A stretch of DNA of 52,915 nt from Candidatus Nealsonbacteria bacterium. Its GTDB lineage: Bacteria > Patescibacteriota > Minisyncoccia > Minisyncoccales > PWPS01. A program made the position numbers and the translations under genes. A model generated the notes under the pieces. It was not told the origin of the DNA, did no database searches, and saw only the letters and a list, made by a program, of their open reading frames with translations. Below are positions 3,338 to 12,262 of this stretch, piece by piece; positions within the stretch are counted from its first letter, which is position 1; each line of letters begins with the position of its first letter. Where the stretch lies: assembly GCA_003560665.1 (NCBI GenBank), contig PWKK01000028.1, positions 1-52,915 of the forward strand, written 5' to 3'.

Positions 3338-3592
3338 ATGCCTATCACAAAGTCAGCAAAAAAAAGATTGAAGCAAAGCGAAAAGCGTCGTGTTTTGAAT
3401 TTAGGTTACAAAAGAAGGATGAAGAAGATTGTAAAAGAGATAAGAGATCTTGTCGCCAGCAAGAAGAAAAAAGATGCACAAAAACTTCTTCCCCAAGCTT
3501 ACAAAATAATCGACAAGGCAGCAAAAAGAGGAGTGATAAAAGAAAATACAGCTTCTCGCAAAAAATCACGCTTAACAAAAGCGACCAGCTAA
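3338..3592 (+). CDS. rpsT: 30S ribosomal protein S20
   Basis: MPITKSAKKRLKQSEKRR...IDKAAKRGVIKENTASRKKSRL; start moved to ATG 3338. Confidence 0.95.
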   Translation: MPITKSAKKRLKQSEKRRVLNLGYKRRMKKIVKEIRDLVASKKKKDAQKLLPQAYKIIDKAAKRGVIKENTASRKKSRLTKATS

Positions 3593-4524
3593 TCTTTGAA
3601 AAGAATCAAGTGAAGTGCCAATACGGGATCAATCTGTCCCGTTTTTGCTTTCAAATCCATTTCAAAAAGGCTATTGTATTTTCTCTTCAACTCTTCAGAA
3701 GAAAAGAGCTTTACCTGTTTGTAGGTTTTTCCGAAAACAAAATGATGGAGACCGCTTTTTGATTTTGCAGCATCATATGAATACTTTCTCTCAACGAGGT
3801 CGCTAACGGAAATCAAATTACGGAACTGATAGGTAATCATCGAAAGGATATAAAGAGGGTTGTCTCCTTTTTGTAAATGGTCATAGAGGAGAAGCAGTGC
3901 ATCTTTTTTTCTTTTTTCTGCTATCGCATCAATTGTCTGGAAGATGTTTATCTCAACGCCGATATTTACCATGTAATCAACATCTTCTTTCTTTATCCTT
4001 TTTTTATAAAGCGCTAGCTTTTCCATTTCATTTTTTATTCTCCAGAGATCTTCGCCGGTTGCTTCCTGCAACCGATAGATTGCGTCCGTGTCTGCCTTAG
4101 CGCCACTACTCTCAAATTCTTTTTTTATCCAAGAGAAAAGCTTTTTCCCGGAAAGAGGTTGGAACTCTTGAATCATAATTTTCCCCTTTTCCTCTAAAAA
4201 CGCCTTTAGAAGCCTGTCGTTCTCTTTTATCTCCCCTTCTTCGTAAAGAACAAAAATATTTTCCGAAATAATTATTTTTTCGTAGTTTTCAAAAAAATCA
4301 TTTTTAGTGCTCTCTGAAGAAAAAACCTTGCGGACAACAACAAGCTTCTTTTCACCGAACATGGATGCCTGCTTGTCGTAATCACAAAGATCTTTAAAGG
4401 TTTCTTTCTCTTCCAAGAAAATTATATTGAGCCCGCTCTTGTATTTCTTTTTGTACTCCTCGATAATCTCCTCCAGTTTTCTTTTGGAGCGGTATGTGTC
4501 TTTTCCGTGGAGAAGTATAATCAT
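3589..4524 (-). CDS. holA: DNA polymerase III delta subunit
   Basis: MIILLHGKDTY start, SMFGEKKLVVV, GEDLWRIKNEMEKL, NIFQTIDAI; convergent with rpsT. Confidence 0.9.
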   Translation of the reverse strand: MIILLHGKDTYRSKRKLEEIIEEYKKKYKSGLNIIFLEEKETFKDLCDYDKQASMFGEKKLVVVRKVFSSESTKNDFFENYEKIIISENIFVLYEEGEIKENDRLLKAFLEEKGKIMIQEFQPLSGKKLFSWIKKEFESSGAKADTDAIYRLQEATGEDLWRIKNEMEKLALYKKRIKKEDVDYMVNIGVEINIFQTIDAIAEKRKKDALLLLYDHLQKGDNPLYILSMITYQFRNLISVSDLVERKYSYDAAKSKSGLHHFVFGKTYKQVKLFSSEELKRKYNSLFEMDLKAKTGQIDPVLALHLILFKD

Positions 4525-4536
4525 ATTATTTAAGCT

Positions 4537-5394
4537 TTATTCTTTGTCTTTTTGGCACCTCGGACAGTGATATGTCCCTCTTCCTCCAAGAACAGTTTTT
4601 TTTATAATTTCTCCACAATCAAAACAGTCTTTTCCCTTTCGTTGATAGACAAGATGATGGTTTTGATATTTTCCCTTTTTCCCGTCTAAGTGGCGATAAT
4701 CACTAGTGCTGTCTCCCTGAAGTTTAATTGCTTTTTTAAGAATACTTTGCGTAAAGTCATATATTTTTTCAATCTCTTTCTCTGTTAAAAGGGATGCATT
4801 CTTCGCGGGGTTTATCTTCGCTTTAAAAAGAATTTCCGCAGCATAAATATTTCCTATTCCGGAAACAAACTGTTGGTCCATTAAAAGTGTTTTTATTTTT
4901 TTCTTTCTTCCCTTGAAAAGATCGATAAACTCATTTTTTCCCAACAAAAGAGGATCGGGGCCGAGTTTCTCGATATAAACTTTTGCTTCTTTTTTAGAAA
5001 AGAGAGCAACCTTGGCAAACTTTCTCGGATCAGAGAGCGCAAGCTGCTTTCCGTTATCTAAAAAGAAAACATATCGCAAGAATCCGTTTTTCCTTTCCTG
5101 CATAATTTTTTCTTTACTTTTCCACTCTTCCTTCCCGGTAATAGTATTTTTCTTCATTTCCCAATTTCCAAAAAGAAGATGCCCCGTCATTCGTAAGTGT
5201 ATAAAAAGAACTTTTTCGTTATCTAAAAAAAGAAAAATACCCTTCCCAAATCTTTCAACACTTTCAACCCTTCTTCTGATTATATTTTTTAGCTCTTTTT
5301 CTCCTTTCTCATCCCATACACGAACAAAGGCCCTCTTTAAGGCCTTTTTTCTTAACGATGAAACGGTAGTTTCTACTTCCGGTAACTCCGGCAT
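4537..5394 (-). CDS. mutM: formamidopyrimidine-DNA glycosylase
   Basis: N-terminal PELPEVET, HLRMTG, DPRKFA, H2TH LLMDQQFVSGIGNIYAAEIL, C-terminal Cys4 zinc finger. Confidence 0.96.
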   Translation of the reverse strand: MPELPEVETTVSSLRKKALKRAFVRVWDEKGEKELKNIIRRRVESVERFGKGIFLFLDNEKVLFIHLRMTGHLLFGNWEMKKNTITGKEEWKSKEKIMQERKNGFLRYVFFLDNGKQLALSDPRKFAKVALFSKKEAKVYIEKLGPDPLLLGKNEFIDLFKGRKKKIKTLLMDQQFVSGIGNIYAAEILFKAKINPAKNASLLTEKEIEKIYDFTQSILKKAIKLQGDSTSDYRHLDGKKGKYQNHHLVYQRKGKDCFDCGEIIKKTVLGGRGTYHCPRCQKDKE

Positions 5395-5413: not shown

Positions 5414-5776
5414 CTACATTATCTCTCTTATTTTCTTGACAATTTCTGCAGGAGTAAAGTGAGCTTTGATAAGGAAATCAACCGCACCAAGATTTAATCC
5501 TCTTTCTACCTCGCTCTTTTGACCTAAGTTAGAAAGAATAATCACCGGTATCTCGGAAACATCAGGGTCATTTTTTATTCTCTCTAAAACCTCGAATCCG
5601 TCGATTCCCGGCAAAATCAAGTCAAGAAGAATCAAATCTGGCTTTTCGGCCTTTGTTTTTTCTTCTCCTTTCTCACCATCAACAGCCTGAATCACCTCAT
5701 ATCCTTCTTTGTCCAGTTTGCGAGAAATCATTTCCCGGAGAAACTTGTCGTCTTCAATAACTAATATTTTAGACAT
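5414..5776 (-). CDS. single-domain response regulator (receiver only)
   Basis: KILVIEDD, DLILLDLILP phosphoacceptor, LSN, conserved Lys in FLIKAHF; no output domain; start moved to ATG 5776. Confidence 0.93.
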   Translation of the reverse strand: MSKILVIEDDKFLREMISRKLDKEGYEVIQAVDGEKGEEKTKAEKPDLILLDLILPGIDGFEVLERIKNDPDVSEIPVIILSNLGQKSEVERGLNLGAVDFLIKAHFTPAEIVKKIREIM

Positions 5777-5804
5777 ATTCGACGCTTTTTTAAATATTTT
5801 AATA

Positions 5805-6191
5805 CTATTCTTCTTTTTTCTCCCCTTCTCCGATTTGTACAATGACCTTATCTATCACTTCCTGAGGATCAAACTCTGTTTTTACAAGCCAGTCCTTTGC
5901 TCCCAGTTTTTGAGCTCGATCAATTTCAACAGGTTGCCCGGAGTTAGAAACAACAACAACAGGTATTCCACGAAGATTATCATCTTTCTGCATTTCTTCT
6001 AACAACTCGAAACCCCCCATTTTCGGCATAATAATGTCCAAAAGAATAAGATCCGGCCTGTTTGCTCTTATCTTTGAAAGTCCCTCTTCTCCATCCTTTG
6101 CTGTTTCAACTTGATACCCTTCTTCTGTAAGTTTTTTCTCTAAAAGACTGCAGAGTACTTCCTCGTCTTCAATGATAATAATCTTCTTCAT
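5805..6191 (-). CDS. single-domain response regulator (receiver only)
   Basis: KKIIIIEDE, DLILLDIIMP, VSNS, WLVKTEF; no output domain. Confidence 0.93.
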   Translation of the reverse strand: MKKIIIIEDEEVLCSLLEKKLTEEGYQVETAKDGEEGLSKIRANRPDLILLDIIMPKMGGFELLEEMQKDDNLRGIPVVVVSNSGQPVEIDRAQKLGAKDWLVKTEFDPQEVIDKVIVQIGEGEKKEE

Positions 6192-6261
6192 ATTTGTAGG
6201 ATTTGTAAAATTTAAATTTTGACCTTTTTTGTATTCTATCTGTATTAAAAGATAATGTCAA

Positions 6262-8016
6262 CTAGAACGCTTCGAAAAAGCTGTCTATCTCTTCTTTGTT
6301 TGCGGGAAGAGTAAAATAAAACGTACTTCCTTCTCCTATTTTAGAGGTAAATCCGACTTTTCCACCATGAGCTTCAACAACGTTTTTAGCGATAAAAAGA
6401 CCCAGCCCCGACCCTTCCGTATCCATTCGTTGTACATTTGCGGCTCGAAAAAACTTGTTGAACATTCTTTTTTGTTGATCATCCGGTATTCCTACACCTG
6501 TATCCGTTGTTGAAACTTTAACCTTTCCGTTAATGCTCTCAACTTTAAAAATTATCTTTCCTTCTTTGGTGTACTTCATGGCATTGTCTAAGAAGTTTTG
6601 CACTACCATGGTTATCTTTTCTCTATCTACCTTAACTTTAGGCAGTTTTTCAGCCGGCTTTTGGACTTCAAACTCGATTTGTTTTTTTCTGATATGGTCT
6701 TTGTAAGCTTCTATAACAGGGTCTACTATTTCCATAAGATCCGTCTCTTCCGGTTCATAAATGTATCTTCCCTCTTCAATACGTGTTACATTTAAAAGAT
6801 CATTTACCAGATTTACCATGCGATCGTTTGCTTCGTACGCCTTCCGAATAAAGCTCATAATTTCTTCGGGAATCTCAGCACTGTCTTCTTCTTCTAAAAT
6901 AGTTTGCAATGTCCATTTTATACCGGAAAGAGGTGTTCGAAGCTGGTGAGCTGCAACAGAAACAAACTCACTCTTTATCTTCTCAATACCCTTTTCTCTG
7001 GTAATGTCATGGATGTTAACAAGTGTTCCCACATCTTTAACGGGAATAGTGGTAACTTCCAAAAAAGCACCTTTTTCCGTAGCAATCTCTTCACGGAAAA
7101 TCTCTTTTAATTCTTCACCGACAAGATCAACAAACGGGTCAAGGGCGGGAAAGGATTTGAGTTCTTTCACCGATTTTCCAATTACATCTTTTAACTTTAT
7201 TCCGAACATCTTTTCCGTTTCGGGGTTTATTAAGGAAACTTTTTTGTTTAAATCAAAGAGAATCAATCCATCCACAAAGTTTTTGATAACCGCCAGTGTT
7301 TTTTCTTTTTCTTTTTCTGCGTCCTTAGAGGCCTTGTCCGTATCTTCTGCTAGATTTAACAGAGCTGTTTGTGTCTGCCTCATTTCTTCTGCTTTTTTTT
7401 CGAGCTCTTCTGCTTTTTTCTCAATCTCCCGTGTTCTTTCTTTTACCTTCTCTTCTAACTTTTCATTTATTTCTTCCAGTTCTTGAGTGCGAGCCATAAT
7501 CCTTACCTCTAAAACTTTTTCTGACTCCTCTAGTTTTTCTTTTGCTTTTTGTAGTTCTTTCGTTCTTTCTTTTATCTTTCTTTCCAGTTCTTCTTCAAAT
7601 CTTTTTGTTTCGGTAATATCACTGATAGTAAGAAAATATCCAGAAAAATTTCCTTCATCATCTTTTCTAGAAAGAGCAGAAATTCTAACCGGTATCTCTT
7701 TTTTCCCCTTTGTGACAAGAGTTACCTCTTCCTCTACTACGGAATCTTTATTAGCAACCCGTGTACTGAACATTTCTATCTTTCCTTTGTCCTTGTCCTT
7801 AAACAAAAAGTCAATGTTCCTTCCGATAGTCTCCATTTTTTCGTACCCAGAAACATCCCGAAACGCATGATTGCAGTCAAGGATATAATCCAGCGGATTT
7901 ACCATGCAAAAAGCCAAAGGAAGAAATGATGTAAAGTCTTCTATATAGCGCCGGAGATCTTCAAGCTCTCCGCTCTCGTTTTCGATTACTTCTTCTTTTG
8001 TTTCTTCTTCCATCAT
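6262..8016 (-). CDS. cytoplasmic PAS-coiled coil-PAS sensor histidine kinase (HisKA + HATPase_c)
   Basis: H box FVSVAAHQLRTPL, N box NFLDNAMKYT, G1 DTGVGIP, F box, G2 EGSGLGL; two PAS-like segments; no transmembrane helix visible. Confidence 0.94.
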   Translation of the reverse strand: MMEEETKEEVIENESGELEDLRRYIEDFTSFLPLAFCMVNPLDYILDCNHAFRDVSGYEKMETIGRNIDFLFKDKDKGKIEMFSTRVANKDSVVEEEVTLVTKGKKEIPVRISALSRKDDEGNFSGYFLTISDITETKRFEEELERKIKERTKELQKAKEKLEESEKVLEVRIMARTQELEEINEKLEEKVKERTREIEKKAEELEKKAEEMRQTQTALLNLAEDTDKASKDAEKEKEKTLAVIKNFVDGLILFDLNKKVSLINPETEKMFGIKLKDVIGKSVKELKSFPALDPFVDLVGEELKEIFREEIATEKGAFLEVTTIPVKDVGTLVNIHDITREKGIEKIKSEFVSVAAHQLRTPLSGIKWTLQTILEEEDSAEIPEEIMSFIRKAYEANDRMVNLVNDLLNVTRIEEGRYIYEPEETDLMEIVDPVIEAYKDHIRKKQIEFEVQKPAEKLPKVKVDREKITMVVQNFLDNAMKYTKEGKIIFKVESINGKVKVSTTDTGVGIPDDQQKRMFNKFFRAANVQRMDTEGSGLGLFIAKNVVEAHGGKVGFTSKIGEGSTFYFTLPANKEEIDSFFEAF

Positions 8017-8017
8017 T

Positions 8018-8578
8018 TTAACCCTCCTTATTCCTCTTTAGCTTCTTTTTTAGTTTGTTTATTTCTTCTTTGAGTTCTATCATTTTAAGCTCTCTTCCTA
8101 TGGTTAGCTTGTTTATTTTCTCCAACTCTTCCACTTTTTCTCTTAATTTTTCATTACTTTCTTTAACCTTTTTTTCCTTTTCTTCTACCTCTGTAAGATC
8201 AAAAAATGAAAGAAAAGCTCCGTTTACTCCCTCTCCTTTAATTTTTCGGCTTTTGGCAAAAACTGTAACCGGCAAAACTCTTTCATCCTTTTTTTTTATC
8301 TTCGTTTTTTCTCTTTCAACCAGTCCCTCTTTTATTGTTTTTTCTAATATCTCTTTGGCATTTTTTTCTTCCATAAAAAGGGTCAGATTCTCTCCCACAA
8401 CATCATACTCGTCATATCCCGTTGCTTTGACAAATGCAGGGTTAACCTCTAAAACCATTCCCTTAGGATTAACAAAACAAAGAGGAAGGGGAGTAAAAGA
8501 AAAGAGATCTTGAATATATGTTTCAAGTAAAGATATGTCCTCTGTAAGTGTTTTTATTTTCCCGTCATCATTTACCAT
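8018..8578 (-). CDS. stand-alone PAS domain protein with C-terminal coiled coil
   Basis: PAS motif VNPKGMVLEVNPAFVKATGY..VVGENL; C-terminal GRELKMIELKEEINKLKK; resembles the adjacent kinase N-terminus. Confidence 0.85.
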   Translation of the reverse strand: MVNDDGKIKTLTEDISLLETYIQDLFSFTPLPLCFVNPKGMVLEVNPAFVKATGYDEYDVVGENLTLFMEEKNAKEILEKTIKEGLVEREKTKIKKKDERVLPVTVFAKSRKIKGEGVNGAFLSFFDLTEVEEKEKKVKESNEKLREKVEELEKINKLTIGRELKMIELKEEINKLKKKLKRNKEG

Positions 8579-9174
8579 TTGATTGTGAATTCGTGATAAT
8601 CGTCTCCCCGATGATTACACTTCACCTCTTCGCACTTTGTTTCTTTTCCAACTCCCATCTTGATAACAGAAGAGAAGTATCCCTTCAAATAATCACACAA
8701 TATCGGATGGAGATTAATATCGTAAAGACGGGCTGTCATAAATCTTTCTTCAGTGCTCATTTCTACAGGTTCCAGTTTTCCGACAGTGTAGTGCTTTTCC
8801 CACATCTCTCCCGCTTTCTCCATGATTTTTTCCGGTGAAAGGAAGTATCTCATAAAAAACTTTATCATTAGAGAGAACTTAGGAGCGTTGGATCCCATTT
8901 GCATCAAACTTTCTTTTTCAAGATTTAGTGCACGAGATATTGCAACAAGAGAAAGAACCCTCATTCCAATCGGATAAAAACTCATATTGTCCGCTTCTTG
9001 GTTATAATCAAAGGGGCACCTCATTTCCTTGAGCTCTTCTTCTACTTTTTTCAATCCTTCTTCTCCTTTGCTATCGACTATAAAGCGCCGATCGGTTTTA
9101 AAAACCACACCCCTTACTTCTCCCTCAGCGTTTAATATTTTATTGATTTCTTCGTCTGTTATTTGATAGGCCAT
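8572..9174 (-). CDS. V4R/H-NOX-fold putative ligand-binding protein, paralog 4
   Basis: GEVRGVVFKTD, FYP, HPILCDYLKGYF, EEVKCNHRGDDYHEFTIKW; motif-level similarity to V4R, H-NOX and TIGR02265/DUF2378-type proteins. Confidence 0.75.
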   Translation of the reverse strand: MAYQITDEEINKILNAEGEVRGVVFKTDRRFIVDSKGEEGLKKVEEELKEMRCPFDYNQEADNMSFYPIGMRVLSLVAISRALNLEKESLMQMGSNAPKFSLMIKFFMRYFLSPEKIMEKAGEMWEKHYTVGKLEPVEMSTEERFMTARLYDINLHPILCDYLKGYFSSVIKMGVGKETKCEEVKCNHRGDDYHEFTIKW

Positions 9175-9194
9175 ATTTTTCCCCCTTAGGGGGT

Positions 9195-9812
9195 TTAATT
9201 ATTACTCTCCGTATTCCAAGTTAAATAAAACTCGTGATAGTCGTCGTTATTAAAAAGACACTTTGTTTCTTTCGCTTCAACTTTTTCTGCTACTACCATA
9301 GAAACAATGGAAGAAAAATAGCCAAGCAAATAACGGCAAAACACTGGATGAAGATTCACTTCATGAAGACGGAAAACAGCCCTCCCTTCATCTTCGCTTA
9401 CTTCTACCGCTTCTATTCTTCCTTTTGTATAGTGCTTTGCCCACATCTCTGTTACCTTTGCAAGTGTTTGCTGTGAAGACATAAAATACTTTGTAAAAAA
9501 CTTAATCAGAAAAGATGCTCTTGGAGCATTTCTTCCCATTTCTTTTATCTCTTCTTCTCCGTAATTAAAGGCCTTACTTATTGCAAGAAGGGAAAATACT
9601 CTTAAATTCAGAGGATAAAAATCCATTCTATCAATGCTTTTATAGTCTATAAAAACACCCATCTTTTCAAGTTCTTCTTCCACCTTTTTTAACCCTTCTT
9701 CTCCCTTTTCTCTTAAAATATAATTTTCGTCTGTCTTGAAAACAACTCCTCTAACCTCTCCTTCGACTTTTTTTAACCTCTCTATTTCTTCTTGATTTAT
9801 GCTATAGGTCAT
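9195..9812 (-). CDS. V4R/H-NOX-fold putative ligand-binding protein, paralog 3
   Basis: GEVRGVVFKTD, FYP, HPVFCRYLLGYF, ETKCLFNNDDYHEFYLTW; start moved to ATG 9812 by alignment with paralogs. Confidence 0.75.
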   Translation of the reverse strand: MTYSINQEEIERLKKVEGEVRGVVFKTDENYILREKGEEGLKKVEEELEKMGVFIDYKSIDRMDFYPLNLRVFSLLAISKAFNYGEEEIKEMGRNAPRASFLIKFFTKYFMSSQQTLAKVTEMWAKHYTKGRIEAVEVSEDEGRAVFRLHEVNLHPVFCRYLLGYFSSIVSMVVAEKVEAKETKCLFNNDDYHEFYLTWNTESNN

Positions 9813-9816
9813 ATTT

Positions 9817-10422
9817 TTAGTTTTCCCAATTTGCCTTAAACTCATGAAACTCTCCCCCGTAAAAAGGACATTTTGTTTCTTTTACAGTTACTTTTTTTGA
9901 AATGGTCATTGAAATAATGCCCTCAAGGTATCCTTCCATATAGGCGCAGTAAACGGGGTGAAAATCAACTTCTTTAATAATAAAAATCGCACACCCCTCT
10001 TCTTCGTTTATCTTCTTCGCTTCCGCTGTTCCTGTTGTCGAGTGCTTTTCCCAAACTTCTCCCACCTTGTTTAAAGTTTGCTTTGTGCTTAAAAAATGTT
10101 TTGTAAAAAACTTAACTAAAAAAGAAGACTTCGGTGCAGCCCTTCCCATCTTTTTTACCCCCTCTCTGTTTAAATCAAATACCTTTGAAATCGCAATAAC
10201 CGAAAGAAGTCTTGTTCCAAAAGGATAAAACTCAGTTGCATGAACGTCTTTATATTTTAAGGGATAGCCCATTTCCTCCAATTCTTGTTCAACTTCTTTT
10301 AGCTTTTCTTCTCCCCCGTTTTGAAGAACAAAAAGACCATCTGTCTTAAAGACCGTTCCCCGGATATCTCCCTTCATATTAATTATTTTTTCCGCTTCTT
10401 GTTTGGATATATTGTAATTCAC
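9817..10422 (-). CDS. V4R/H-NOX-fold putative ligand-binding protein, paralog 2
   Basis: GDIRGTVFKTD, FYP, HPVYCAYMEGYL, ETKCPFYGGEFHEFKANW. Confidence 0.75.
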   Translation of the reverse strand: MNYNISKQEAEKIINMKGDIRGTVFKTDGLFVLQNGGEEKLKEVEQELEEMGYPLKYKDVHATEFYPFGTRLLSVIAISKVFDLNREGVKKMGRAAPKSSFLVKFFTKHFLSTKQTLNKVGEVWEKHSTTGTAEAKKINEEEGCAIFIIKEVDFHPVYCAYMEGYLEGIISMTISKKVTVKETKCPFYGGEFHEFKANWEN

Positions 10423-10430
10423 AATTTATT

Positions 10431-11033
10431 TTACCACTTTAATAAAAATTCATGAAAAAAACTTTCACCTTTAAAATAGCACTTTACTTCTTCACAAGAT
10501 ACTTTTTCCAAACCTCCGTTTTCCGCAATCGCCGCAAAATAACCGCAAAGATAGTCGCAAAAAACAGGATGGAAGTTAAGATTGTACAGGCGTAAAACAG
10601 CCCTTTTTGCATCACTGTCCGTCTCTACCACCTCCAACCTTCCGACTGTGTGATCCTTTCTCCACGCTTTAGAAGCTTTTTTAAATATTTTTTCTACTGT
10701 AAGAAAACGTTTTGTAAAAAGATTTACTAAGAAAGAATTTTTCGGTGCAGCTCTTCCCATCTCTTCGACCTCTTTCTTGCTCATACTAAAAACTCTGCTT
10801 ATCGCAATAAGAGACAGTGCTCTTCTTGCCCACGGATAATATTTTTCACTCTTTATCTCTTCATAGAGAAAAGGGCACGCCAACATATCAAGCTCTCTTT
10901 CTATCTGGTCTATCTTTTCTCTTCCTCCTTTTTCCAAAACAAAGAGCTCATCATCCTTAAGAACCCTTCCCTTTACTTCCCCAGGAGAACTCATCATTGC
11001 ATTTATGGTCTCTTTGTTGACTTCGTAATGCAT
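10431..11033 (-). CDS. V4R/H-NOX-fold putative ligand-binding protein, paralog 1
   Basis: GEVKGRVLKDD, YYP, HPVFCDYLCGYF, EEVKCYFKGESFFHEFLLKW. Confidence 0.75.
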   Translation of the reverse strand: MHYEVNKETINAMMSSPGEVKGRVLKDDELFVLEKGGREKIDQIERELDMLACPFLYEEIKSEKYYPWARRALSLIAISRVFSMSKKEVEEMGRAAPKNSFLVNLFTKRFLTVEKIFKKASKAWRKDHTVGRLEVVETDSDAKRAVLRLYNLNFHPVFCDYLCGYFAAIAENGGLEKVSCEEVKCYFKGESFFHEFLLKW

Positions 11034-11957
11034 TTAGTTAAGGTTGAGTTTTAAATTATTTTCTTCTTTTTCTAAAAAACGCTTTGCAAGGCTAACAAAT
11101 CCCAGATCGTTTAATGCATCTATTATTTTTTCGTTTTCAAGGGAAAAATAAAAGTTAGAAAAATCAAATTCACTGAAGTCGTTTTTGTTTATCAAAGCCA
11201 AATCTCTGCTCAAAAAGGCTTTTTCTTTGCTTTCTTTAATTTTTGTTAGGATTCGTTGACTAATTCCCGAAACCGATTCTTTCTGTAGCTCCTCTTGATC
11301 TAAAAAAGAGTATAAATTCTCTAAACTCCCGAATTTTTTAATAATCTTGATAGCGGTTTTTTCTCCAACCCCTTCCACTCCCGGAATATTGTCAGACTGA
11401 TCTCCCTGTAATGCTTTTACATCCGCTATCTTTTGTGGGGGAATTCCATCATACTTCTCCTCAACCTTTTTTATATCATAAAGAACGGTTTCTTTAATGC
11501 CCCTCTTGAGAGTATATACTTTTGTTTTTTCATTGACAAGTTGTAAAATGTCCATATCTCCGGTAACGATTATCGTTTCAACCTCTCGCGGGGCAAAAGA
11601 AGATATTGTCCCCACAATATCGTCCGCCTCAAGTCCTTTTTTCATTAAAATTGTAACACCTATCTTGGAAAAAACTTCGCTTGTTTTTTTTATCTGAGAA
11701 ATCAATTCATCGGGAGCTTTGGGGCGGTTCGCCTTATATTCTTTATACTTTTTGTGCCGAAAAGTCTTTCCCGGGGAGTCAAAAGCAGCCGCTACATACT
11801 GCGGTTTAATCTCGGATATTATCCTAAAGAAAGCAAGAAGGGATCCGTAGATCGCCCCACCAGGCTCTCCTTCTCTGGTTTTCAGGGGTGGAAGAGCGTG
11901 GAAGGCACGATGAATAATAGAGTTGGTGTCAAAAAGTAGAAGTTTTTTTCTTTCCAT
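11034..11957 (-). CDS. 5'-3' exonuclease (isolated DNA polymerase I N-terminal domain)
   Basis: LLLFDTNSIIHRAFHALPPL, AAFDS, YKANR, EADD, TGDMDILQL, H3TH GDQSDNIPGVEGVGEKTA; ends at 307 aa without a polymerase domain. Confidence 0.92.
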   Translation of the reverse strand: MERKKLLLFDTNSIIHRAFHALPPLKTREGEPGGAIYGSLLAFFRIISEIKPQYVAAAFDSPGKTFRHKKYKEYKANRPKAPDELISQIKKTSEVFSKIGVTILMKKGLEADDIVGTISSFAPREVETIIVTGDMDILQLVNEKTKVYTLKRGIKETVLYDIKKVEEKYDGIPPQKIADVKALQGDQSDNIPGVEGVGEKTAIKIIKKFGSLENLYSFLDQEELQKESVSGISQRILTKIKESKEKAFLSRDLALINKNDFSEFDFSNFYFSLENEKIIDALNDLGFVSLAKRFLEKEENNLKLNLN

Positions 11958-12073: not shown

Positions 12074-12147
12074 CGGGGTATGGTGTAATGGCAGCACGCT
12101 TGCTTTGGGAGCATGTAGTCTCGGTTCAAATCCGGGTACCCCGACCA
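12074..12147 (+). tRNA. tRNA-Pro(TGG)
   Basis: Acceptor CGGGGTA/TACCCCG + A + encoded CCA; loop TT-TGG-GA. Confidence 0.92.
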
Positions 12148-12183
12148 TTTATTAGAACTTTATTAAATTAATTTTTAATTAAT

Positions 12184-12257
12184 GCGGGAGTAGCTCAACT
12201 GGCTAGAGCATTTGCCTTCCAAGCAAAAGGTTGCGGGTTCGACCCCCGTCTCCCGCT
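12184..12257 (+). tRNA. tRNA-Gly(TCC)
   Basis: Acceptor GCGGGAG/CTCCCGC + U73; loop CT-TCC-AA. Confidence 0.94.
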
Positions 12258-12262
12258 CAAAC

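Follow-up and report, generated by a model that had tools for sequence, protein, structure and literature searches.

Tandem H-NOX/V4R-fold proteins encoded upstream of a soluble histidine kinase in Patescibacteria: candidate detachable inputs to a two-component system

The window analysed here, a stretch of 52,915 nucleotides from a Candidatus Nealsonbacteria genome of the Patescibacteriota (contig PWKK01000028.1), carries eight genes on its minus strand that have the look of a signalling cassette: four tandem genes for small, mutually similar proteins (the paralogs P1 to P4), one for a PAS-only protein, one for a soluble histidine kinase and two for receiver-only response regulators (REC1 and REC2). 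Coordinates without a contig label are positions in the window, and the genome to which it belongs, G000 in our set, measures 679 kb. A sequence-only reading of this region had proposed that the four paralogs are soluble sensors of the V4R/H-NOX fold that act on the kinase, and it is the standing of the paralogs as candidate accessory sensors that concerns us here.

The unit opens with a gene for a 5'-3' exonuclease that consists of the polA N-terminal domain only (11034..11957, minus strand; Pfam 5_3_exonuc_N and 5_3_exonuc). Two plus-strand genes, tRNA-Pro(UGG) and tRNA-Gly(UCC) at 12074-12258, lie between it and rny (the window has 21 tRNA genes), and because they separate rny from the exonuclease gene the unit is taken to begin at the latter, which is also the conserved left border of the cassette and is syntenic in relatives. 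Its stop codon abuts the start codon of P1 (TAA/ATG, 0 nt). P1 (200 aa, 10431..11033), P2 (201 aa, GTG start, 9817..10422), P3 (205 aa from the ATG at 9812, 9195..9812) and P4 (200 aa, 8572..9174) follow one another at distances of 8, 4 and 20 nt; the open reading frame of P3 reaches back to an ATG at 9845, and the family profile begins at 9812, which gives the 4-nt gap. The P4 gene overlaps the gene of the PAS-only protein (186 aa, 8018..8578; Pfam PAS_9) by 7 nt (ATGGTAA), and the latter is joined to the kinase gene (584 aa, 6262..8016) by a TAA-A-ATG junction of 1 nt with AAGGAGG upstream. After 70 nt comes REC1 (128 aa, 5805..6191; Pfam Response_reg E=6e-26; syntenic) and after a further 28 nt REC2 (120 aa, 5414..5776; Response_reg E=2e-26), whose open reading frame reaches back to a TTG at 5842. 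The eight genes, all of them on the minus strand, have the order and spacing first described; the exonuclease/P1, P4/PAS and PAS/kinase junctions were read directly. The exonuclease gene and the two genes beyond REC2, fpg (4537..5394) and holA (3589..4524), both on the minus strand, run in the same direction and are also tightly spaced. The window copies of fpg and holA are open reading frames that were named by eye, the former from a zinc-finger Fpg signature and the latter from a DNA polymerase III delta-like translation; in the related locus L070 the orthologues are marked by Pfam Fapy_DNA_glyco and DNA_pol3_delta.

The kinase shows the order PAS, coiled coil, PAS, HisKA, HATPase_c in Pfam and NCBIfam searches (HisKA 54.5 bits, HATPase_c 93.5 bits in Pfam), the receivers score 91-93 bits with Response_reg, and an 'AAHQLRTPL' H-box in the kinase and a 'DLILLD' acceptor region are visible in the translations. 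Judged by these domains, the kinase is a class I HisKA enzyme and, with its receivers, belongs among the two-component systems. None of the eight proteins has a transmembrane (TM) helix: the highest 19-residue Kyte-Doolittle mean is 1.62, compared with 2.3-3.0 for membrane proteins of the same genome. The Pfam assignments confirm a PAS protein, a PAS-PAS kinase and two receiver-only proteins, as first described.

A promoter-like site, TTGACA-17-TAGAAT (6233..6261, minus strand), lies directly 3' of the kinase stop codon in the 70-nt gap that precedes REC1, and matches at 11/12 positions. The site and much of its spacer (TTATTTTTTAATACAGA-like) are kept in 10/10 loci of the same family; in three loci of other families the gap is short and the site is missing. 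This conservation suggests that the receivers, and probably fpg and holA, have their own putative promoter, and the conserved spacer could alternatively be an operator. Promoter and terminator counts over the whole region did not exceed those of shuffled controls. The fpg and holA genes form the conserved right border of the cassette and probably share a transcript with the receivers. No RNA runs that contain the locus were found; the four sequencing runs that hold it are all of DNA and come from salt and soda lakes.

The paralogs are 38-52% identical in pairwise comparison, are matched by the family profile at E values of 1e-75 to 1e-98 (3e-75 for P1, 1e-78 for P2 and 5e-90 for P3) and share, as the alignment confirmed, all six of the motifs that had been picked out by eye, so that their family likeness goes far beyond chance. 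We built an AlphaFold2 model of P4 on 88 family sequences (predicted local distance difference test score, pLDDT, 94.1; predicted template modelling score, pTM, 0.90). Its best matches in the PDB by Foldseek are the H-NOX proteins of Nostoc, Shewanella and Thermoanaerobacter and the beta1 subunit of soluble guanylate cyclase (E=4e-8 to 1e-5, template modelling score 0.55-0.76, with 188-201 aligned columns and hence over the full length). They are followed by the V4R domains of DmpR (6iy8), PoxR (5fru) and MopR (5kbe), with E values of about 3e-5 to 6e-5 and scores of 0.43-0.51, and after the H-NOX proteins TRAPPC3 (Bet3) is also found, with a score of about 0.5. The H-NOX fold combines a distal helical subdomain with a proximal one made of helix and a four-stranded sheet. 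Since H-NOX and then V4R proteins head the matches, the proposed 'V4R/H-NOX fold' is right at the level of structure.

At the level of sequence the two halves of that name fare differently. The C-terminus is V4R-like, as had been claimed: Pfam V4R (PF02830) covers only the C-terminal 35-40 residues of the paralogs and stays below its gathering score of 31 (19.0 bits for P1, 25.8 for P2, 14.7 for P3 and 30.0 for P4), a tandem-fused member of the family, P0121, reaches 35.2 bits, the paralogs give weak matches to NCBIfam MsvR (up to E=5e-5), and an alignment with MopR runs over a zinc site that is described below. Some family members carry the JGI label 'predicted hydrocarbon binding protein'. 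The N-terminal half of the paralogs has no XylR_N match. Membership of the H-NOX/HNOB sequence family did not hold up: Pfam HNOB (PF07700) matches none of P1-P4 at E<=1, and hhalign comparison of the family profile with Tt H-NOX or with a five-sequence H-NOX alignment gave probabilities of 0.2-2.9%, the comparison relying on three PDB-verified H-NOX sequences. A suggested resemblance to DUF2378/TIGR02265 found no support either: the paralogs have no Pfam or NCBIfam match to these profiles at E<=1 and PF09536 has none in the whole genome at E<=10.

The structural matches raise the question of heme. The proximal histidine on helix alpha-F is absolutely conserved in H-NOX proteins (PMC7108781), and a collinear hhalign alignment (20-200 against 1-178), which is statistically insignificant and gives only a hint, places H128 of P4 on that residue, Tt H102. 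In the family alignment W125 (P4 numbering) is invariant and H128 is present in at least 90% of sequences. If the paralogs were true heme-based sensors of NO, O2 or CO in the canonical H-NOX manner, one could point to heme H-NOX proteins as their best structural matches, to this alignment, and to the presence of histidine at position 128 in 100% of the P2-P4 orthogroups and 93% of the other kinase-linked members outside P1. The histidine is, however, shifted by one residue in most P1 orthologues, is replaced by tyrosine in an antiporter-linked clade and is found in 47% of the other clade of the family. The YxSxR heme-propionate motif has no counterpart when the sequences are anchored on the zinc-site cysteine and C-x4-G; hhalign places it on R149-L-Y-D-I, and it is conserved in no register in P1-P3. 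To our knowledge heme synthesis is generally absent from Patescibacteria. With no profile link (the HNOB profile finds nothing and hhalign does not exceed 3%), no YxSxR and a variable H128, canonical heme binding is unlikely on sequence grounds and a heme-based gas sensor is a very improbable reading of these proteins. H128 and W125 are candidate pocket residues.

What the paralogs do keep is a predicted zinc site. In P4 it consists of C160, E183, C186 and H194 with the spacing C160-x22-E183-x2-C186-x7-H194, and all four residues are kept in each of the four paralogs and in most of the family. In a profile search of PDB sequences, residues 158-195 of P4 align with 154-191 of MopR, so that the four fall on the MopR zinc ligands C155/E178/C181/C189 with the same spacing, the last ligand being His and not Cys. 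The spacing also matches that of the redox-active Cys206/232/240 of MaMsvR from M. acetivorans (PMC3729527). The H-NOX protein of S. oneidensis has a zinc site made up of C139/H161/C164/C172 (PMC7108781); we checked its sequence and found that the x2 and x7 intervals recur and that the stretch leading to the second ligand is shorter by one residue (x21). This site is a redox switch in the H-NOX proteins of S. oneidensis and V. cholerae, and the heme-free V. cholerae protein senses oxidants and inhibits HnoK (PMC7108781).

The PAS-only protein that follows P4 has no output domain. Its AlphaFold2 model (pLDDT 91.8) consists of an N-cap helix, a PAS core and one uninterrupted C-terminal helix of 57 residues (129-185); the protein resembles the PAS modules of FixL, NifL and short LOV proteins, and its PAS domain is a paralog of the first PAS domain of the kinase (E=4e-18). 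The helix ends in a tail, 'LTIGRELKMIELKEEI' (coding region 8024..8134, minus strand), whose consensus is roughly E-L-E-K-[FI]-x-[KR]-L-[TMA]-[IV]-G-R-E-L-K-M-[IV]-E-L-K, and which ends both PAS-only and TM-HAMP proteins. Invariant residues are concentrated in the tail, with G161, R162, E163, M166 and K170 unchanged in 46 PAS-only homologues; the tail is present in 119/120 such homologues, always near the C-terminus, and never in kinases. In the window's own genome it also ends a 439-aa TM-HAMP protein without an output domain (C21:7054-7164, plus strand). A profile of the tail finds it in 42/401 genomes and 39/320 genera of the phylum, in open reading frames of roughly 100-1200 aa and a few shorter fragments. 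The idea that the GRELKM tail is a degenerate H-box, comparable to 'SHELRTP' of the DHp helix of kinases, found no support: an hhalign comparison of 145 tails with 40 DHp regions aligns only the PAS end, and, counted from the PAS 'D-x-T', Arg162 and the kinase histidine lie at distances that differ by 15 residues, which is not a whole number of heptads.

To see the cassette in its relatives we called open reading frames in 54 loci and labelled them with the window proteins and the family profile. The block exonuclease-[inserts]-kinase-REC-REC-fpg-holA occurs throughout the order, and matches to the kinase at E<=1e-40 were found in 40/41 genomes. Full-length kinase orthologues with 57-75% identity are present in every sampled genome of the genus and occur in two sister genera (three of the four genera of the family), the third sister genus and other families match the kinase from about residue 190, and REC2 is 84-88% identical across the family. 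The variable part lies between the exonuclease and kinase genes, where there are 0-4 family members and/or output-less sensors of the PAS or TM-HAMP type. The arrangement seen in the window, with one to four V4R-like genes and the PAS gene, recurs in eight further genomes of the genus and in another genus, the array of G013 being cut at a contig end. Cassettes with a family member also occur in at least six other families of the order, in two other lineages of the phylum and in metagenome contigs. The co-location with the kinase that had been predicted is therefore conserved in the genus, the family and at least six further families; it is not universal, being absent from G012, G016 and G019.

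The inserts themselves differ from lineage to lineage. Three or four family members with the PAS protein are found in the window's genome and in G001, G002, G003, G008, G010 and G021, one member with the PAS protein in G004, G005 and G034, one member by itself in G009, and the PAS protein by itself in G006 and G035. G038 has two members and no tail-bearing gene was seen there in an array that is cut at the contig end, L070 has two large PAS proteins and a member, G039 has several tail-bearing proteins and no member, and there is no insert in G016, G019, G027 and G029. A TM-HAMP protein accompanies a family member in G028, G031, G066 and G265. In five loci (four in other families of the order and one in a family outside it) a TM-HAMP gene with the same tail precedes the V4R-like gene; in four of the five the V4R-like gene overlaps or abuts the kinase gene, and in the fifth a PAS gene stands between them.

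P4 and the PAS gene tend to be gained or lost as a pair. Orthologues of P4 are nearly always followed by the PAS gene; within the genus both are present in 11 genomes, the window's own included, and both are missing from the cassette of G009, which has only P1. G006, with the PAS gene and no family copy in its cassette, is the exception to this co-inheritance. In G007, G011 and G022 the pair is found apart from the kinase, and the ATGGTAA overlap of the two genes is kept there too. By a hand count, about 37 of roughly 150 family matches in the 41 genomes lie within a few kb upstream of the one orthologous kinase. Among the evenly sampled genomes of the phylum, all five that have the family also have tail proteins, against a base rate of 42/401, and in each of them a family gene abuts a tail gene; the five represent only about three independent lineages besides the window's own, and the statistic (about 1e-3) is therefore modest.

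An exhaustive profile search found 955 clusters of family sequences (50% identity) at E<=1e-3 and 324 at 1e-30, nearly all of about 200 aa; the fusions among them are two tandem ones and one to a receiver. The latter, P0210 (354 aa), joins a receiver domain (30.9 bits in Pfam) to a family member in which the zinc ligands survive only in part (Cys, Glu, Lys, Asn). The family is lineage-restricted and locally expanded: it reaches E<=1e-10 in only 5/401 genomes of the even phylum sample, and it is present in 29/41 relatives with 1-18 matches per genome. The window's genome has seven copies, four in the window, a pair on contig C1 and one on C21. Seven copies in 679 kb, and up to 18 in relatives, amount to the large investment for a reduced genome of which the sequence-only reading had spoken.

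A maximum-likelihood tree of 85 members has two clades. The first is never kinase-linked and contains the C1 pair and the long arrays of G021 and G015. The C1 pair (C1:51839-53052, minus strand) is a tandem upstream of genes for a 124-aa protein, a transglutaminase-like protein and a DUF218 protein. The arrays (L054 on G021:C56 and L055 on G015:C12) comprise 8-10 family genes each, the genomes measuring 0.6-0.8 Mb, and are flanked by genes for a Wzy_C-TPR membrane protein, two serpins, an ABC exporter and a PIF1/RecD-like helicase, of which three were assigned by Pfam and the exporter and helicase were named by eye from translations. Decaying family copies with stop codons are present in G018:C5. 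The second clade holds all kinase-linked members together with a long-branch, antiporter-linked group, the one with tyrosine at position 128. To this group belongs the divergent C21 copy (C21:11525-12118, plus strand). It is flanked on one side by a gene judged by eye to be Na+/H+ antiporter-like and on the other by a DUF1614 gene, and the TM-HAMP tail protein is encoded some 4 kb away. In the sister genus g2 (L028, L030, L034, L035) a single copy stands either upstream or downstream of a gene for a membrane-fusion protein of the HlyD/MacA type of about 480-500 aa, and not beside a kinase gene.

These other locations bear on an alternative in which the proteins of about 200 aa are carriers or buffers of hydrophobic molecules (lipids, tetrapyrroles or other host-derived compounds) and do not regulate the kinase, the locus being merely a tolerant site of insertion and duplication in a conserved block. 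The fold family is known for such ligands: H-NOX proteins bind heme, MopR and DmpR bind phenols, the structure of TRAPPC3 (Bet3) has a covalent palmitate, and V4R is thought to bind hydrophobic ligands (PMC2253512). Most copies of the family, among them a whole clade with arrays that reach 10 genes, have genes for exporters, serpins and envelope functions as neighbours and not signalling genes, and some genomes have the kinase without family proteins. Several observations, however, do not sit well with a mere insertion site: the 7-nt overlaps with the PAS gene or with the kinase gene are conserved, P4 and the PAS gene are co-inherited, family genes adjoin those of tail-bearing sensors in 5/5 family-bearing genomes of the unbiased phylum sample, the kinase-linked copies have a separate place in the tree, and a receiver fusion exists. 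We regard the carrier explanation as unlikely.

Within the genus the four paralogs correspond to as many orthogroups (support 96-100; 100/99 for P1, 100/98 for P2 and 100/97 for P4), so the quadruplication is old and its products have been lost differentially since. An independent triplication at the same place upstream of the kinase has occurred in G021. This history weighs on a further alternative, in which the paralogs respond to no ligand and, like Sda, KipI or FixT, are inhibitors or structural subunits of the kinase complex, with a purely structural zinc; they would couple or insulate the output-less sensors and the kinase and would sense nothing themselves. The zinc site of MopR and DmpR is regarded as structural, the most conserved residues of the window family are those of the zinc site and of glycine turns, and in many loci the proteins sit exactly between the tail-bearing sensors and the kinase. 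No orthogroup-specific residues were found among P1-P4 at a strict threshold, a result that could be counted on the same side and that is uninformative with so few sequences. Against a single structural role, four old orthogroups that have diverged to 38-52% identity are kept in a 0.68-Mb genome and duplication has been repeated at the same place, for which reason diversified inputs fit better; moreover, the characterised relatives of the fold are all sensors. A purely structural function thus seems to us distinctly unlikely.

On balance we favour, with a probability that we would put at roughly 55%, the interpretation that the family proteins upstream of the kinase are detachable accessory sensors for it, and that the cassette is a multi-input two-component system assembled from separately encoded parts, of the H-NOX/HnoK kind. 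It draws its support from the predicted fold and zinc site, the gaps of 0-20 nt and the 7-nt overlap, the synteny, the enrichment of the family upstream of the kinase, its repeated expansion there, the co-inheritance of P4 and the PAS protein, the adjacency to tail genes in the phylum sample and the receiver fusion. Several observations count on the other side. Much of the synteny reflects shared ancestry, since the flanking housekeeping genes are syntenic too. The kinase cassettes of G016, G019, G027 and G029 have no family member upstream and G012 has the kinase and no family member anywhere in its genome, so the family proteins must be dispensable for the kinase. Roughly three in four family copies have no kinase nearby, and a whole clade is arranged in tandem next to genes for a Wzy_C-TPR protein, serpins, an ABC exporter, DUF218 or an HlyD-like protein. 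It is these copies away from kinases and these cassettes without them that keep the main rival, carriers or structural subunits, alive. Tail-bearing sensors occur in many genomes without the family and are therefore not obligate partners of it, and the promoter-like site of the receivers implies that they are not strictly co-regulated with the sensors.

In the accessory-sensor scheme as we infer it, down to the binding steps, the ligand, the sign of regulation and the output, the soluble PAS-PAS histidine kinase and the two receiver-only proteins would form a fixed core, to which variable accessory inputs, encoded upstream of the kinase in the same operon and differing in their set by lineage, would be added. 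One kind of input would be the stand-alone H-NOX/V4R-fold protein of about 200 aa with its Cys-Glu-Cys-His zinc site, represented here by P1-P4; the other would be an output-less sensor with a long helix and the GRELKMxELK tail, a PAS protein here and a TM-HAMP protein elsewhere. The H-NOX-fold protein may take its signal, a small hydrophobic ligand, possibly a tetrapyrrole, or oxidation, in the pocket or at the zinc-thiolate site, and would then undergo a conformational change in the region of the helices on which W125/H128 and C160 lie. As the sequence-only reading proposed, the four paralogs may differ in specificity while controlling the one kinase. The protein would next bind the helical stalk of the kinase dimer, directly or by way of the tail-bearing PAS protein, with which P4 may be produced by coupled translation. 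Binding would shift the kinase between its autokinase and phosphatase states, and the phosphoryl group would pass to REC1 and REC2, which would act on their partners by protein-protein contact. The receivers of this genome are consistent with such a step. It encodes four kinases and six receiver proteins (the other receiver loci are C19:183-806 on the minus strand, C2:13534-13905, C11:14124-14516 and C1:108062-109152), and no receiver has a recognisable effector or DNA-binding output domain: five are receiver-only and the sixth has a C-terminal, zinc-ribbon-like CxxC...CxxC tail. As the receivers are without output domains, their output is probably exerted through protein contact. The gene for a minimal kinase of 236 aa overlaps the next receiver gene in the same genome.

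The scheme can be taken further, in a tentative and rather doubtful form, to the view that Patescibacteria of this and other lineages assemble a sensor kinase non-covalently, with diverse transmitter-less tail sensors (PAS-only, TM-HAMP and others, the tail being present in about 10% of the sampled genomes of the phylum) that would plug in trans into a soluble core kinase and, in one order, with H-NOX-fold proteins bearing a zinc site as couplers or inputs. The heme-less H-NOX-fold proteins would be interchangeable couplers, or extra inputs, between tail and kinase, and the duplication of a 600-bp module, in place of whole kinases, would diversify sensing in a minimal genome.

Regulators are very scarce in ultra-small Patescibacteria, and the means by which these bacteria sense hosts and surroundings are for the most part poorly understood. 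That the genome studied here spends seven genes on one small sensor-like family, and its relatives up to eighteen, matters in that context. If the paralogs are detachable inputs, the H-NOX/V4R/Bet3 fold would gain a third, zinc-only signalling branch, and minimal genomes would have a cheap way to multiply their inputs. The proposal could be tested directly in vitro because all of its parts are soluble (about 200, 186, 584, 128 and 120 aa). The tail common to the output-less sensors may in addition be the signature of a broader group of receptors in the phylum that has so far escaped recognition.

Full-text literature searches for this architecture, for the family and for the tail motif yielded no relevant description, in agreement with the earlier supposition that this arrangement had gone undescribed. 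Among known systems, separate small proteins modulate histidine kinases in trans in NosP/NahK, HbpS/SenS, PII/NtrB and Sda or KipI with KinA; the logic is the same, but the folds are unrelated and there are no tandem paralog arrays or tail-bearing output-less sensors. The short LOV or PAS-only proteins, such as PpSB1-LOV, share with the PAS protein of the window a PAS core, an N-cap helix, a long C-terminal helix and the absence of an effector domain, whereas the window protein has no flavin-binding cysteine motif, shares its GRELKMxELK tail with TM-HAMP proteins and is encoded between a sensor protein and a kinase. To the V4R proteins (PF02830, COG1719; XylR/DmpR/MopR/PoxR and MsvR) the family is linked by its C-terminal half, the MopR zinc ligands and the MsvR cysteine spacing. 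It differs from them in standing alone without an AAA+ or helix-turn-helix fusion, in the histidine at the last ligand position and in the missing XylR_N match, and the P4 model is closer to H-NOX (template modelling score about 0.7) than to DmpR and MopR (about 0.5). The nearest parallel is the H-NOX/HnoK system of Shewanella oneidensis and Vibrio cholerae, in which the soluble kinase HnoK feeds more than one receiver (PMC4436077). Both have the fold over its full length in a stand-alone protein (about 190 aa in H-NOX) that is encoded beside a soluble kinase, and the zinc site, a predicted one in the window family, lies at the same structural place in both. The window family departs from H-NOX in having no detectable sequence relation to HNOB and no YxSxR, and in its predicted zinc ligands, which are Cys-Glu-Cys-His where H-NOX proteins use Cys-His/Gln-Cys-Cys. 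At the level of the system, the patescibacterial cassette has between one and four paralogs in an operon, adds a layer of output-less sensors that share a tail, and has receivers that are all without output domains.

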